Shown: positions 29,975 through 50,273, numbered from the stretch's first letter. The stretch: 64,000 bases of DNA from Nitrospirota bacterium (GCA_963737155.1 CAVTRN010000001.1:800001-864000); one strand, 5' to 3'. Notes: a model not told the origin generated them from the letters alone. Numbers and translations are program-made.

Positions 29975-31275
29975 CTTTTTCTCCTTTCAATTAAATGAAT
30001 GAGAACTCCACACGTATAGATGGCCCACATTCATCTATTGGTGGCAATCACTACTGGTCGGGGTCTGTGGAGCGAAGTAGATACCCCCTTAACAAAAAAT
30101 CACTGCTGCTTAAGTAAAACTCAACTTACCGCACCGGATTGTCAAAACAGCGCGTTTTTTTTGAACAGAGTAGTGTCGATTTATTGAAAACGCTGCATTT
30201 AATACCTTTTAACTTGCTATTCCCAATAACTTAAGGGAAAAGTGAAAGAAACCAAAGGTTACTTATTGAGAAATCAAACAAAATACCCTGTGTCTGTTTG
30301 CTGCGTGTGTTCATTTATTACGTCAAACTTTTATAAATCCTGATACAAACTGTCTAATCAATAGAACGTCTCTCTGAAAATTGGTCTATATATTACATGA
30401 ATAACTTTTGTATCTTATCGGAAAATACTAAAATAACTTTAATTCTTTGGGCGAAGTCTTATGGTAAAACAAAGTAATTTCCAGGCTTGCTTTATGAGTT
30501 TGCAAAATCAACCACATTCTCGGGATTTTAAAACAGGATGCGAAGCCCAGAGAACTAAGATCAACAAGAAAAAGATAATTTCTGTGTGAATTTTTTAGTC
30601 AAACCTCTTTTTGGAAGCTGTTATAGTTGCATTTCCTTTAAACATGTCTGACTACATTCTGTCGCGCCAGGTCAAGCCTGGGAGAGGTGAACGACCAGAA
30701 ACCGAAACCTTTCGTAGTGATTCTGTAGGCAACCAATCCTACCTGACAAAGCCTGGTCAGCAGTCAGAAGCGAGTCTTGCATGCGCATAGGTGACTATGT
30801 GTGTGAAGCGTAGACAGCTACTGCAAAAGCCGTGTCATTGAGCCCCGAAATAGCCTTGTGAGAGTTTTCGTTTTCAGAATGACGGGAACAGCATCGATCG
30901 TGCAGTACCGACCTTACATGATCGGTCCCACCGGGGTCAAAGAGCAGGGCAAATGTAGAGAAGGGTCATCCAGGAACCTGGGAGGTCTTGCCAACTCCGT
31001 CTTTGAAACACCGGTGGGGATACGGAACGAATAACTCCAGGCCTCAAATGTCCGCGCTGAGACGTGTGAGGAGGTGCTGAAGGGCACGAAACGAAACGAT
31101 CAGCGCGAAGGACGGTATCGCCAACTGAAGGAAACGAAAGACGGCGAGATGGGAAGCAAGATGTCGTAGCGCCCTCATAGTACCGGTGAAGCAGGGGAAT
31201 GAATCCCATCGGACCCTGTCGAGGTAAGGGGGGCGTCGTATTGTAGAATCGTTGAGGGGAAAGACAGAGGATGCG

Positions 31276-45220: not shown

Positions 45221-47008
45221 TCAACCTTTGTTTGCGCTTTCTATTGTTGCCTTGATCCGCGCAAGCCTACTTTTTATTTCATCCAGCTTCCCCGTTGTCT
45301 CGGCCAACATCTGCTTTCGCACCTCGACATCATGTGCGCCCTTCGACCTCTGCACCATGCCTTTTTCGATCGCACTGGCAATCCCCTCTATAGTTGTGTC
45401 GATCTTCTGGAAAATTTCCCAGCGGAAGGCGAGCTTGCTTTTATCCAGGCGTTCTTCAAAATCGTTTCCTGCCCTGGCGGCCTGCATGGTCACAACTCTC
45501 TGGAGGTATTCCTTCATCTTCTTAAGGATAATTTTATCGCCAATGAATTTCGGCAGGGCAAGGGTTAAGGTTGAAGCAATGATCGCCATGCCCACAGGTT
45601 GTTCCTTAAACCTGTAGTAGAAGTCGGACTTGACGCTCCAGAGGGCTTCCGCCTTGACCGTATCGAAGGGTACGGAGAATAGCTCGGAGGAATAGTGCAG
45701 CAGCTCATCCACCGTTTCATTGATCTTGGTAATGAACCGTTTGCAGATGGCTTCAAAGGCCCTTGCGAGCCGTTCGTCTTCCATGGCGCGCCAGGTGATA
45801 AACGCCTGCTTGACATGAACAATGACAGCTTGCTCAAGGGTGCTACGAAGATCTTTGAGGGAAAGGCCCTTATTCTGTTCAAATTGCTCTGTGAGATGCT
45901 CATGTTCGCGAGTCATCAGGTCCCTGACGAATCCCTGCAGATCATCGTTCAGTTCGCCCTTGTCCAATCGTGAGACTTCGCCCTCTAGCAGGATCTCGAA
46001 GTCCCGCTTCACCTGCTCCACTTCGCCTTTTTTACTTTCAAATGCCCGCAATTTGTCTTTCAGTTGTTCGAGCGGTGATGTGAGCGACTTCAGTTCAAGT
46101 TCCAATTCGAGCTTTGCCTGAGAAATACTCCTGAGCAGGTTGTTTGTGACGGAGAGGATGAGTACATTTCCCTTCTCTTCCATCAAAAACCTATGTAAGT
46201 CTTTGGAAAAAGGGGGAAGCCTGCTTTTCTCCATCAGCTCCGCGGACTTCGCGGCCACCGCGTCAAGGGCGAGCCGCGCAGAGATAGGGAAGAGCTTTAC
46301 CTCAGAACGCATGACATCCTTCAGCCCATGCTTGGAAAATTCAATGGACTCCTTAAGATCGTTCTCCCGCAGGTAATCGGCCTTGTTCAGAACAAAGAAT
46401 ATTTTGTTTGAATACTCTTTCACGTCCCTCAAGAAGTCAAGCTCGGCCCTGCTCATTGGCTGATCCACAGAGAGAAGAAAGAGCGCGGCATCCGATTTTG
46501 GCAAATACTGGTACGCAACATCCGTATTGTGTTGATATATCGAGCCAACGCCAGGTGTATCGATAAGCCGTACACCGTCCTTAAGATAAGGTGAAGGGTA
46601 CGAGAGGATCACTTCGCGGACATCTTTTACATTTTTCGGATTGCCTTTTTCCGTAACATATTCCACGAGACTATCCGACTTGATTTCGGCGATTTTGCCG
46701 TCATTGAAATATACTTTGATCCTGAGCGCTTCGCCCCAGGTCATAATGGTCACGATGGAGGTAAGCGGAACGACCGCTACAGGTAGGATTTCGGCACCCA
46801 AGAGCGCATTTACGAGGCTTGTTTTTCCGCGCTTGAACTGGCCAACAACCACAAGATTGAAGGTGTTGCTCCTAACCTTTTCTTTCAGATCTTCGCAGGC
46901 GCAGCTCCGGATGTTCTCGATCATAAGCATTTCGTCCATGCACTGCAAGAGGCCGTTTTTCAGTTGGGCATATTTTGAGGTTGAAGATGGTTGCACTGCC
47001 GGATTCAC
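45221..47008 (-). CDS. Dynamin-like GTPase
   Basis: G1 GQFKRGKT, G2 PLT, G3 DTPG, G4 NKAD; long helical stalk. Confidence 0.9.
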   Translation of the reverse strand: MNPAVQPSSTSKYAQLKNGLLQCMDEMLMIENIRSCACEDLKEKVRSNTFNLVVVGQFKRGKTSLVNALLGAEILPVAVVPLTSIVTIMTWGEALRIKVYFNDGKIAEIKSDSLVEYVTEKGNPKNVKDVREVILSYPSPYLKDGVRLIDTPGVGSIYQHNTDVAYQYLPKSDAALFLLSVDQPMSRAELDFLRDVKEYSNKIFFVLNKADYLRENDLKESIEFSKHGLKDVMRSEVKLFPISARLALDAVAAKSAELMEKSRLPPFSKDLHRFLMEEKGNVLILSVTNNLLRSISQAKLELELELKSLTSPLEQLKDKLRAFESKKGEVEQVKRDFEILLEGEVSRLDKGELNDDLQGFVRDLMTREHEHLTEQFEQNKGLSLKDLRSTLEQAVIVHVKQAFITWRAMEDERLARAFEAICKRFITKINETVDELLHYSSELFSVPFDTVKAEALWSVKSDFYYRFKEQPVGMAIIASTLTLALPKFIGDKIILKKMKEYLQRVVTMQAARAGNDFEERLDKSKLAFRWEIFQKIDTTIEGIASAIEKGMVQRSKGAHDVEVRKQMLAETTGKLDEIKSRLARIKATIESANKG

Positions 47009-47029
47009 GCTATGGTCTCCTGTACATAG

Positions 47030-47065
47030 AAAAAACTCCTACCCTCAGGCTTAGAGAGTAGGAGT
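47030..47065 (-). terminator. Intrinsic terminator (riboswitch expression platform)
   Basis: CTCCTACTCTC..GAGGGTAGGAG-TTTTTT overlapping the aptamer 3' end. Confidence 0.85.
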
Positions 47066-47107
47066 CATCAGCTTCACAAGAAGCGGTTAATGGCGAACTC
47101 CATCACC
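47058..47107 (-). promoter_or_regulatory. Fluoride (crcB) riboswitch upstream of dynamin-like gene
   Basis: GGTGATGGAGTTCGCC-ATTAA-CCGCTTC..GAAGC-TGATGACTCCTAC matches the crcB consensus including pseudoknot pairing. Confidence 0.92.
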
Positions 47108-47168
47108 GTAATTCAAACCAATCACCTATTGGTCATGTTTGTCAAAAAAGGCCAGGGATTCTGTGCAA

Positions 47169-47414
47169 TCATTCGAAACCGCTTTCCTGATTTTCCTTAT
47201 TTTCCGCGCCTTCTTTTGCTTTTTCACCTTCGCTAGCAGCCTCTCCCTGTGAACTGTCTTCCTCTTCGGGTTCCTCGATCTCCTGCCCAGCATGCTTTGC
47301 TAATACGCTCCGTTCTGCATCGAGCCAATCATCAAGATCATGACCGCGGATATACCCTCTCGTCTCATATAGTTGATAGGCAACCGCTGCGATCTCACCA
47401 TGCAGATTCATCAC
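47169..47414 (-). CDS. DUF2934-like small protein
   Basis: IAAVAYQLYETRG..GHDLDDWLDAE with acidic tail. Confidence 0.8.
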   Translation of the reverse strand: MMNLHGEIAAVAYQLYETRGYIRGHDLDDWLDAERSVLAKHAGQEIEEPEEEDSSQGEAASEGEKAKEGAENKENQESGFE

Positions 47415-47508
47415 TTTTCTCCTTCATATCGCAATGAGACGGTCATTCTCGCAGGTGATACAGGTTGGACTCTATCGTGCAATGATTCAGCGAAATTGAC
47501 AGGCACTC

Positions 47509-48228
47509 TCAACCGTCAACCAGGCCAGCGGCGTCTCTATGGGTGTACTTTATCACATTCACGTCCGAAAGGACGACGATCCCTTCTCCCACCAGTTCAT
47601 CAAGGATGGGGATAACTTTATTGATTTTCTCTTCGCTGTCCATGACGGTGATCAGGATCGGAAGTTCGCCATGCATCGTCATGGTTTTCTTTTTGTGATA
47701 GCGCTTGTGCGGGCCGTACCCTGCGATGGCCTTGTAAACCGTTGCTCCCGCGATATCGGTCATGATAAGCCTTTTTACTATAGCTTCGTACAGCGGTTCG
47801 CCTTCCCACTTGTCATCCTCGCTGATTAAGATACGGAGCATTTTTGCCTTGCCTTCTAGCTTCATATGTTCTCCTTGTTTTTCGCGCTTCTCCTCCGCCT
47901 TCGGGCAGCACTTGATGACGTTCGTGTCTGCGATCTCCACCATGCCCTTTTCTACTACATGGTAAATGTCCGGGAGCACCTTGTTGATCATCTCCTCGGA
48001 TTCTACCACCTCGATCTTCATTGGCATGCTCGTGGACATTTCAAGCATCTTGGCCGTATGAAAGAGGCCGTCGCTTCCATAGCCCGCAATGCCACGGAAT
48101 ACACTAACGCCCACGATCTTTTTTTTGAAAAAGATATCGAGCAGTACTTCATAGACGGGCTTTCCGTGGAACTTGTCCGTCTCATCTACATAGACAGTCA
48201 GTTTTTTCGCCGGCCCATTGGTTACCAT
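47509..48228 (-). CDS. Tandem DUF190 (PII-like) protein
   Basis: Two repeats of E.DK..G.P.YE..GA/VTV..IAGYG..PI.I; directly downstream of crcB. Confidence 0.85.
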   Translation of the reverse strand: MVTNGPAKKLTVYVDETDKFHGKPVYEVLLDIFFKKKIVGVSVFRGIAGYGSDGLFHTAKMLEMSTSMPMKIEVVESEEMINKVLPDIYHVVEKGMVEIADTNVIKCCPKAEEKREKQGEHMKLEGKAKMLRILISEDDKWEGEPLYEAIVKRLIMTDIAGATVYKAIAGYGPHKRYHKKKTMTMHGELPILITVMDSEEKINKVIPILDELVGEGIVVLSDVNVIKYTHRDAAGLVDG

Positions 48229-48238
48229 GCTTTGTCTC

Positions 48239-48613
48239 CTATATCCCCTTTGCAATCACTTCACCCAGCTTCAAGGCCATGAATCCAACGACAACGCTTA
48301 AAACCATATTGAGCGCTGCGAAACCAAGTTCTCCGTCAATGACCAGTTTGCCGGTCTCATACTGAAATGTTGAGAATGTAGTGTAACCGCCCAGTCCCCC
48401 GACAACGAGAAGCAGTCTCCACTGCGGATTTTCCAGGAAGCGTTCCGCCATCAGAGTCATGAGAAAACCGATAAGAAAGCTTCCGCTGACGTTAATCAGA
48501 AAGGTCCCGAGGGGAAAGCTCCTTCCCCACCGTTGGCCGATCCAGGTTGCCAGCATGAAGCGCGCAACGGAGCCGATGCCACCGCCCGCGAAAACTACAA
48601 TATAGTTTATCAT
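48239..48613 (-). CDS. crcB: Fluoride channel CrcB/FluC
   Basis: GGGIGSVARF, FPLGTFLINVSGSF, GGYTTFSTF. Confidence 0.95.
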   Translation of the reverse strand: MINYIVVFAGGGIGSVARFMLATWIGQRWGRSFPLGTFLINVSGSFLIGFLMTLMAERFLENPQWRLLLVVGGLGGYTTFSTFQYETGKLVIDGELGFAALNMVLSVVVGFMALKLGEVIAKGI

Positions 48614-48634
48614 GGATAGTATGTCCCTTGATCG

Positions 48635-49059
48635 TTATTTTACGATTGCTACAGTGCACGGAGCATAGGTCGTCACGCGTTTTGATACCGATCCCAGAAG
48701 CCAGGTCGCTATTTTCGATTTGCCCCGCTGGCCTACAAAGACCATGTCGCGCTTTTTTTCGATGGCATATTTTATAATTTGATCCGCTGGATGGCCGACA
48801 ACGATCTCTGTTGTAATTTCAATATTATATGTCTTCGCTTTGTCCCTGAGTCCTTTGAACAGTCCTTCGTAATGCTCAGTAGCGCCGTCGATTATTGCAT
48901 CCATTTCGACAATATCGATAGGCTCTGGCGGCTGCGCCACCGATAAGACTGCAATCTTCGGTGATGCCCCGGTGCAAATCCGGGATATTTCAAGGCAAAG
49001 TCAAAAGCTTTATACGACTGCGGAGAGCCATCAAAGGCAACGAGTATCTTGATCAGCAT
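48635..49059 (-). pseudogene. Universal stress protein with a 1-nt frameshift near 48990
   Basis: ATG 49059 with RBS gives MLIKILVAFDGSPQSYKAF; C-half GHPADQI..GQRGKS..LLGSVS is in another frame (span 425 bp). Confidence 0.8.
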
Positions 49060-50273
49060 GGAAGCCTCCTCTTGGATAACTGCCAGGGTAATAAATTATT
49101 TCGGCGAAGCAGCAATTTTTCCCCCTTTTTCGGTAATAGATAACGAGGAACGAAGAAGGCATTCGCAATGAGGGTCGGCACAACGGCGCTCCCAATGACC
49201 GCTACGATCAGCAGGGAATACTGCACCTGATCGATGATCTTATGGGAAAGCCCGAAAAGCGCGGCAATGGAACCGAAAGTCAATCCAGTGGACATGAGAA
49301 GCGTGGTGTAGATGCCTTCCTTCTGCGCGTATTTGTACGCCTTCGTTGCTGGATACACGCCGATGATCTTCGTAATCATCTTTGTTACAAACAGCACGAG
49401 CAAAGCAACAGGCGCGGCGATAATCGCCGGGACCGACACATATGAACCGGCGCGGATGAAATAGAACGGCGTGAGCAGGCCGAATGTCAGCGTCCTGAGC
49501 CGCCTGATGAGGACGTGGTCCTTGCCCACGGTCCCAGCGAGCACCATGCCGATGATATATGCCGGCAGCACTGCTTCGCTGTCCGACCATACTGCGAGTG
49601 ACCCGAGGCCAAAAAGAACCATCAGGAGGTATTTAGCTTCGAGTTCCGACGGCCGGTCCCCGTATTTCTTGAAGAACCACGGCGTGAGATAAGGGAGAAT
49701 AAAAAATACGGCAGCTCCGACGCCGACAAAGATCAGTGTCCTCACCGTGAATGGCGCGAAGATCAGACCCAAGGCAAGGACTGCACCGAGGCCAGTGACA
49801 AAGCAAGCAGCAAGGACTGCCTTGCCGAAGTCGGTCTTGTTGAGCCCTAGTTCCAGCATCACCGCGTAGACCACGGCAACCGAGGTCGTGGAAAGGGCCA
49901 CGCCCGCCAACCAGCTTGCTTGCACGGTCCAGTGAAGGAGGTAGTACGCGGCCGCAGTGCAACCGAGAAGGTGCGAGAGAAATGAGATAAAGCCGATGGC
50001 AGTCGCTTCCTTGAGCTTAGCCTTGAACACCATAGGGTCAAGCTCCGCGCCTGCAAGAAAAGTAAGAACAATAGCACCAGTGCTGGACAGGAACTTGATC
50101 CATGGCTCGTTGGAGCCAAGTGTTGTTCCTATAAATGCGCCGATGATCAACTGGGCTACGGTGCCGACAACGATTTCCGAGAGTGCCATGGCAATTCTGA
50201 GCCAGATGGAAAACAGGGTGGCGAGCAAGGCCAGACCCAGCCAAAGCGCGGCCATTCCCCAAACCTCATGCAT
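49053..50273 (-). CDS. Cation:proton antiporter (CPA2/Kef-like)
   Basis: Many TM helices; FLAGAELD, LSTTSVAVVY, PFYFIRAG; ATG 50273 follows riboswitch terminator. Confidence 0.88.
   Translation of the reverse strand: MHEVWGMAALWLGLALLATLFSIWLRIAMALSEIVVGTVAQLIIGAFIGTTLGSNEPWIKFLSSTGAIVLTFLAGAELDPMVFKAKLKEATAIGFISFLSHLLGCTAAAYYLLHWTVQASWLAGVALSTTSVAVVYAVMLELGLNKTDFGKAVLAACFVTGLGAVLALGLIFAPFTVRTLIFVGVGAAVFFILPYLTPWFFKKYGDRPSELEAKYLLMVLFGLGSLAVWSDSEAVLPAYIIGMVLAGTVGKDHVLIRRLRTLTFGLLTPFYFIRAGSYVSVPAIIAAPVALLVLFVTKMITKIIGVYPATKAYKYAQKEGIYTTLLMSTGLTFGSIAALFGLSHKIIDQVQYSLLIVAVIGSAVVPTLIANAFFVPRYLLPKKGEKLLLRRNNLLPWQLSKRRLPC

Follow-up and report, generated by a model that had tools for sequence, protein, structure and literature searches.

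A terminator-type fluoride riboswitch before a dynamin-like GTPase gene in Nitrospirota, and the conservation of this pairing among relatives

The fluoride exporters CrcB and EriC-F were discovered through genes located downstream of fluoride riboswitches (PMC5533749), and for many crcB RNAs an ON-switch design has been described in which an intrinsic terminator is set against the aptamer pseudoknot (Weinberg et al., PMC2864571). The statements attributed to PMC articles here and below draw on excerpts of those articles; in the excerpts of PMC2864571, PMC9971707 and PMC5533749, the known regulon genes comprise those for transporters, mutS, formate hydrogen lyase, enolase, pyrophosphatase, Usp and phosphate genes, and no dynamin is named. 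Here we analyze a 64,000-nucleotide (nt) stretch of a Nitrospirota genome (GCA_963737155.1, CAVTRN010000001.1:800001-864000; "the window" denotes this whole stretch), in which a fluoride riboswitch of the family RF01734 precedes the gene of a 595-amino-acid (aa) dynamin-like GTPase. With the crcB and eriC-F leaders, and with the ppaC-uspA-eno-gpmA-crcB operon of Enterobacter cloacae FRM (PMC5533749), this locus has in common the RNA family, the terminator-type ON design and a set of island companions (CrcB, Usp, enolase, a Na+/H+ antiporter and HAD), and it differs in that the controlled gene encodes a dynamin-like GTPase. Because exporters were found through the genes behind these riboswitches, a tightly linked new regulon member is a strong functional lead, and the pairing suggests that a bacterial dynamin helps cells to cope with fluoride, a role not reported so far.

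Excerpts of the literature describe bacterial dynamins as well known in structure and mostly unclear in their cellular tasks. IniA of Mycobacterium smegmatis (PDB 6j72), a stress-induced membrane protein of the bacterial dynamin-like (BDLP) type (PMC6715688), is the best fold match to the window dynamin and similar to it in length (606 versus 595 aa), whereas identity is 17-18% and the triggers differ, IniA answering cell-wall drugs and the window dynamin a predicted RNA fluoride sensor. BDLP of Nostoc punctiforme (PDB 2j68/2j69) has the same layout of GTPase domain, neck, trunk and a membrane paddle at the tip (putative in the window dynamin), but is about 100 aa longer and has no riboswitch. 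DynA of Bacillus subtilis, which guards membrane integrity under antibiotics and phage (PMC8844932, PMC12998192), is a two-headed fusion, unlike the window dynamin. Three assignments to described systems were rejected: the IniBAC operon, as iniB and iniC are missing and the neighbors are a DUF2934 gene upstream and a convergent HTH_3 gene downstream; DynA, whose NCBIfam model NF052648 gives 88.7 bits against a cut-off of 1600; and Eleos (LeoA/LeoBC), as locus and genome hold one dynamin gene and the 74- and 64-bit matches reflect family likeness.

No paper that connects a dynamin with fluoride riboswitches or with crcB emerged from our search, which lay outside the gene table and supplement of Baker et al. 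2012, and in the excerpts at hand the literature on bacterial dynamin-like proteins and fluoride deals with the structure and cell biology of eukaryotic or bacterial dynamins, not with fluoride resistance. An initial annotation of this DNA had noted that no characterized role for dynamins in fluoride resistance was known to it. Both riboswitch and protein family have been described before; their link, and its near-universal conservation in one clade, appear to be new.

The leader of the dynamin gene (Table 1) was assessed with Rfam covariance models, hairpin scans and folding. Three matches in the whole window passed the Rfam threshold (gathering score 34 for RF01734), namely two fluoride riboswitches, both full-length and on the minus strand, and one group II intron piece. 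The dynamin-linked aptamer (65 nt) comprises P1, P2 and a 6-bp pseudoknot of GGAGUU with GACUCC, and 43 nt separate its 3' end from the GTG start codon, which is on the same strand. It overlaps a terminator-like hairpin, GACUCCUACUCUC-loop-GAGGGUAGGAGUU, followed by six U, and the leader folds with z = -3.99 relative to shuffles. Since the 5' arm of this hairpin contains ACUCC, the pseudoknot strand that pairs with GGAGU of the P1 loop, terminator and aptamer pseudoknot are mutually exclusive; judged as a riboswitch platform, the leader thus has a same-strand terminator in competition with its aptamer. Together with the comparison of relatives below, these sequence features support well both the reading of the leader as a true ON-type fluoride riboswitch working by transcription termination and the predicted regulation of the dynamin by it. 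The features also bear out the initial annotation, which had described a canonical crcB aptamer with its own overlapping terminator, distinct from the riboswitch heading the crcB operon, before a 595-aa dynamin-like GTPase; only its geometry needs correction, as the distance given was about 50 nt and the aptamer extends to 47116 rather than 47107, 9 nt farther.

Table 1. Coordinates of features in the window
Feature	Coordinates	Strand	Basis and remarks
Dynamin-like GTPase, 595 aa	45221-47008	-	GTG start; Pfam Dynamin_N 103.6 bits, cut-off 27
Ribosome-binding site AGGAG	47017-47021	-	8 nt upstream of GTG start
Intrinsic terminator	13-bp stem 47066-47034; U6 tract 47035-47030	-	Hairpin scan, folding
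Fluoride riboswitch aptamer RF01734, dynamin-linked	47116-47052	-	59.6 bits, E 5e-14, model positions 1-64 of 64
Possible -35 box TTGACA of own promoter	47140-47145	-	Predicted, weak; just after DUF2934 stop
Upstream fluoride operon, headed by first riboswitch	47169-50273	-	Open reading frames and profile matches
DUF2934 protein	47169-47414	-	Last gene of upstream fluoride operon, next to dynamin leader
Double DUF190 protein	47509-48255	-	Upstream fluoride operon
CrcB	48239-48613	-	Upstream fluoride operon
Usp, frameshifted	48635 to about 49059	-	Upstream fluoride operon
CPA2 Na+/H+ antiporter	49053-50273	-	First gene, upstream fluoride operon
First fluoride riboswitch	50382-50317	-	RF01734, 65.7 bits, E 5e-16, full model
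HTH_3 protein, 51 aa	44909-45064	+	E 1.8e-10; converges on dynamin 3' end
Group II intron domain D1-D4	30733-30946	+	RF02005, 134.3 bits; about 14 kb from fluoride island

To place this pairing among relatives, we scanned prokaryote genomes, one per species, by alignment and took the loci of the best 80 of 415 relatives, with proteins of 46-89% identity. At the gathering threshold, Rfam reports a total of 80 fluoride riboswitches across these loci. A same-strand riboswitch lies within 200 nt of the dynamin start in 49 loci, typically at 42-58 nt, and farther upstream in 12; the remaining 19 have none by this criterion. Open reading frame clustering and Pfam matches indicate that the more distant cases mostly have the order riboswitch, CPA2 antiporter, in some cases Usp, then dynamin. 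Other such cases have a DUF6062 gene in between (L031), a 247-nt gap (L036), or a transposase inserted between the riboswitch and a 5'-truncated dynamin (L083; ISAzo13 family, 1240-2226 on the minus strand, E 1e-137).

A FastTree tree of the 73 full-length proteins separates, with 100% local support, a clade of 11 Thermodesulfobacteriota rows from one of 62 Nitrospirota-type rows. None of the 11 has a riboswitch, and the 62 divide into 45 with a direct riboswitch, 12 with one at the operon level and 5 without. Closer inspection of loci lacking an Rfam match recovered a direct riboswitch just below the cut-off (L039, 33.9 bits), an aptamer that is intact but for an insertion of about 180 nt in its P2 loop (L053, 2210-2440), a riboswitch 2.87 kb upstream that heads an antiporter-Usp-DUF190-dynamin operon (L046), and an irregular aptamer lying 52 nt upstream of the gene together with a cut riboswitch copy at the contig start (L087). 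A same-strand upstream riboswitch is therefore present at 65 of 66 Nitrospirota-type loci, directly in 52 and at the head of a short operon in 13. At the remaining locus (L034) the contig end leaves 386 nt of upstream DNA, and its riboswitch presence cannot be judged. This count places L082, L089 and L095, which are absent from the tree, with the riboswitch-less clade on the basis of their neighbors and record labels; otherwise it becomes 65 of 69.

The riboswitch stays with the dynamin while the upstream neighbors vary (Usp, DUF190, DUF2934, DUF5618, HIT, P-type ATPase, TauE or a transposase), and, judged by the tree, the link has outlived at least five to seven rearrangements. Chance juxtaposition can be excluded on this genomic evidence, because the window's genome holds only two credible fluoride riboswitches, those of Table 1, and conservation in relatives confirms it. 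A third RF01734 match in that genome (C2, 26.4 bits) lies inside a 474-aa open reading frame and was judged false.

The pairing also holds in 151 genomes drawn evenly from the phylum, a comparison that, as these are relatives, does not amount to a statistical test. The dynamin gene occurs in 10 of these genomes (11 copies) and a fluoride riboswitch in 54. Judged by coordinates, each of the 11 copies has a riboswitch upstream on its own strand, which is direct for eight (in G000, G001, G003, G016, G079 and G150, and for both copies in G136) and 1.67-1.75 kb away for three (G036, G076 and G110). All 10 dynamin genomes fall within the 54 that bear a riboswitch, and none of the 97 riboswitch-less genomes has the gene. 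The co-occurrence that the initial annotation had proposed as a check on its reading is thus found both here and among the orthologous loci. The two units of G136 (C42:2578-4459 and C37:72333-74206), each with 64% identity to the query, have each kept their own switch. Distribution of the gene is patchy, also among 15 same-genus genomes searched, the window's included, where eight carry it.

Comparison of 88 aptamers from the orthologous loci indicates that the structure of the dynamin-linked RNA is under selection. In an alignment fitted to a model from eight of the same sequences, which favors structure, 98.5% of cells are paired and 10 of 14 aptamer pairs change on both sides, including three of the six pseudoknot pairs; none of 500 shuffles reaches the observed level, and slid controls are 35-63% paired. 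A simple regular expression finds a terminator that uses the pseudoknot strand and ends in a U-run in 46 of 50 direct units, and two of the four misses (L056 and L088) show a terminator at the edge of the printed stretch. Terminator stems vary in sequence between lineages with pairing maintained. The aptamers tolerate insertions in the P2 loop, of about 30-35 nt in several loci (among them L047, L052, L059, L061, L064 and L103), about 80 nt in L028 (2307-2452) and, as noted, more in L053; such insertions reduce or split the Rfam score.

The protein has the GTPase motifs G1 (GQFKRGKT, 56-63), G3 (DTPG, 150-153) and G4 (NKAD, 208-211), and GQFKRGKT, DTPG and NKxD are invariant in an alignment of 28 sequences, the most distant of which has 46% identity. 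Two cysteines are likewise invariant in all 28 dynamins, C38 in the N-terminal helix region (GCPCEE motif) and C422 in the trunk. By sequence, the nearest solved proteins are Nostoc BDLP (E 5e-21) and M. smegmatis IniA (E 1e-20), followed by the Campylobacter dynamin-like protein pair. An AlphaFold model built from the alignment (predicted local distance difference test, pLDDT, 73.7; predicted template modeling score 0.68) consists of a GTPase domain and long helices, with helical neck and trunk predicted at 264-444 and 491-594. Foldseek ranks IniA first (E 2.6e-16) and gives BDLP the highest TM-score (TMq 0.65); the modeled neck and trunk fold as in these two proteins, consistent with membership in the dynamin superfamily. 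A conserved hydrophobic stretch at about 470-490, where pLDDT is below 50, lies between helices 384-444 and 491-554, the position in which a membrane-binding paddle would be expected. By analogy, the product is probably a membrane GTPase of the IniA/BDLP type. In the window's genome, as in each of five relatives (six of six genomes), the riboswitch-gated gene gives the sole full Dynamin_N match; the other matches are confined to the P-loop at 20-28 bits. A database entry, P0001 (572 aa), covers 96% of the query and is thus about 23 residues shorter, presumably at the N terminus with a start near Met24. As orthologs are conserved from about residue 10 and the close relatives L027, L029 and L058 also open with GTG read as V, the GTG at 47008 appears the likelier true start.

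We propose that the dynamin is a fluoride-induced, IniA-like membrane-maintenance GTPase gated by a terminator-type fluoride riboswitch, a reading to which we give a probability of roughly 0.55. In the absence of fluoride, transcription would end at the 13-bp hairpin and U-tract, 22 nt short of the start codon; once the aptamer has bound fluoride, its pseudoknot would keep the ACUCC strand, no terminator would form and the 595-aa dynamin would be made. The protein would then attach to the cytoplasmic membrane by a hydrophobic tip on the trunk helices and, by GTP hydrolysis, seal, fuse or pinch off membrane damaged in fluoride stress (hydrogen fluoride, HF, or acid), working alongside other proteins of the fluoride island, namely the exporter CrcB, the CPA2 antiporter and a spare enolase. 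Precedents exist in that IniA and DynA protect or remodel membranes under drug, pore-former or phage stress (PMC6715688, PMC8844932, PMC12998192), and fluoride is reported to lyse diverse bacteria (PMC12700350). Within this proposal, gating by the riboswitch is well supported by comparison; induction by fluoride and the cellular role of the dynamin are inferred. The broader claim that the whole dynamin clade is a dedicated fluoride-resistance effector, switched on only through the fluoride riboswitch, is more tentative, and we would place it somewhat below even odds. If true, membrane damage or HF permeation would be a primary lesion of fluoride stress in these anaerobes, and a bacterial dynamin would for the first time have a defined chemical inducer and physiological task. 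The clade's built-in and simple presumed inducer, fluoride, makes its function directly testable. Protection of membranes by the dynamin would add a membrane arm to models of fluoride toxicity that now center on exporters and inhibited enzymes, and would bear on fluoride-rich or acidic habitats and on the engineering of microbes that free fluoride from fluorinated chemicals.

Several observations weigh against this reading. The Thermodesulfobacteriota sister clade has no riboswitch at any of its 14 loci, either with the Rfam model or with one built from eight dynamin-linked aptamers, and the dynamin family as such is, on this comparison, not tied to fluoride. The orthologous loci are relatives and not independent trials, and all clade members are known from uncultured genomes. 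With only 10 of the 54 riboswitch-bearing genomes carrying it, the gene is accessory and not required for fluoride tolerance. Homology is the one line of evidence that points to a membrane role: the structural model is of moderate confidence, the putative membrane tip (456-489) is its worst-modeled part, and this segment is moderately hydrophobic (Kyte-Doolittle mean about 1.6, calculated by hand) and not among the five most hydrophobic 19-residue windows of the protein. The candidate promoter of the dynamin unit has a weak -10 element, and read-through from the crcB operon may feed the riboswitch.

That candidate promoter would consist of a perfect TTGACA hexamer 24 nt upstream of the aptamer and a -10 candidate, GATTGG or ATTGGT, at a spacing of 16-17 nt. 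The best hexamer pair at the leader matches at 8 of 12 positions and was not listed by a generic promoter scan, which returned about as many promoter-like sites as it did in shuffles. The closest relatives (L024, L026 and L028) retain the -35-like box, and a sigma-70 match of at least 9/12 occurs within 75 nt of the aptamer in 24 of 47 direct units, which is suggestive only. The public sequencing runs listed for the 5.2-kb stretch were of soil DNA only (word share <=0.26), with no RNA run among them.

Around the dynamin lies a variable "fluoride island", several members of which are known companions of fluoride riboswitches (CrcB, Na+/H+ antiporter, Usp, enolase and HAD). Counted on the same strand over 67 Nitrospirota-type loci, the window included, the neighbors are the CPA2 antiporter (32 loci), Usp (29), a double DUF190 protein (25), CrcB and a small HAD hydrolase (16 each), enolase (13), an MFS transporter, an AAA_16 NTPase and a Zn-ribbon/HEAT protein (12 each), and a HIT protein (7). 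In E. cloacae FRM, CrcB, Usp, enolase and pyrophosphatase act together (PMC5533749). Behind the dynamin, 9-12 loci (L030, L031, L040, L043, L049, L051, L059, L061, L103 and others) have a conserved pair of genes for an AAA_16/NB-ARC-like NTPase (~267 aa) and a Zn-ribbon/HEAT-repeat protein (~129 aa), which are possible partners of the dynamin; queries from relatives found neither protein in the window's genome.

The company of transporters allows a different role, in which the dynamin reshapes or partitions the membrane to cut HF entry, or assembles and clusters CrcB and the CPA2 antiporter, with no repair involved. Such a helper would fit the same-strand linkage with antiporter, Usp and CrcB and the 13 loci in which the dynamin is co-transcribed behind the antiporter or Usp under a single riboswitch. 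In many loci, however, the riboswitch-dynamin unit stands away from any transporter (for example L047, L057, L060, L062, L066, L080 and L088), and we know of no precedent for a dynamin as a membrane-organizing helper of exporters; we consider this role unlikely. Metal fluorides trap dynamin-type GTPases, and a cell might accordingly replace dynamin poisoned by MgF3- or AlF4- with more of it, as it does with extra copies of enolase, the classic fluoride target that shares these islands; a GDP-AlFx structure of OPA1 is among the fold matches. Yet this dose compensation presupposes a constitutive dynamin to back up, and the gated gene is the sole dynamin in all six genomes compared. A terminator switch that is off without fluoride further implies a protein not needed in normal growth, and no riboswitch-less genome of the phylum sample has the gene. 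With no constitutive copy and a gene off by default, compensation becomes quite unlikely. Where the initial annotation had left the choice between defense in fluoride or acid stress and overproduction to offset inhibition, the former fits the data and the latter is thus disfavored.

We regard as improbable both the shedding of vesicles that remove damaged membrane, or deposits of fluoride or metal fluoride, and a sink in which the protein soaks up GDP-metal-fluoride. IniA/IniC mediate extracellular vesicle release in Mycobacterium tuberculosis and LeoA is linked to vesicle-associated secretion (PMC10240201, PMC4159319), but the locus holds no hint of cargo or secretion, and stoichiometric sequestration would be inefficient for an ion at millimolar levels. 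The gene could also be a passenger of mobile islands or an Eleos/LeoA-like phage-defense dynamin whose link to fluoride is incidental. PADLOC models of LeoA and LeoBC do match, distribution is patchy at both the phylum and the genus level, and transposases or integrases lie near L041/L042, L073 and L083. Eleos, however, requires two dynamin-like genes, of which there is one here, and the riboswitch sits directly on the dynamin in 52 loci despite changing neighbors, with both G136 copies keeping their own. Because an incidental link would not outlast so much rearrangement, we hold this origin to be highly improbable. Fluoride-induced membrane maintenance remains the reading that we favor.

In the window itself, the convergent HTH_3 gene behind the dynamin makes the latter a single-gene, monocistronic unit; apart from the dynamin's own 3' end, no island-gene remnants were found 3' of it. 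The 51-aa HTH_3 protein may be a short or truncated antitoxin-like regulator. The riboswitch heading the upstream operon carries a terminator platform of the same type as the dynamin-linked one and is preceded by a promoter-like TTGACG-17-TACCAT (50413-50385). The Usp gene of this operon is split, with ortholog residues 1-31 in one frame and 18-141, with a stop, in another, and is either a pseudogene or an assembly error.

Among relatives, a fluoride riboswitch also occurs immediately 3' of the dynamin stop, heading enolase-HAD-MFS genes in L073 (4257-4327) and a DUF6062 gene in L074 (4255-4325). In the riboswitch-less Thermodesulfobacteriota clade, a divergent SLT_2 transglycosylase gene often precedes the dynamin, and in L086, L090, L092, L100, L101 and L102 a membrane H+-pyrophosphatase gene follows it, directly so in two.

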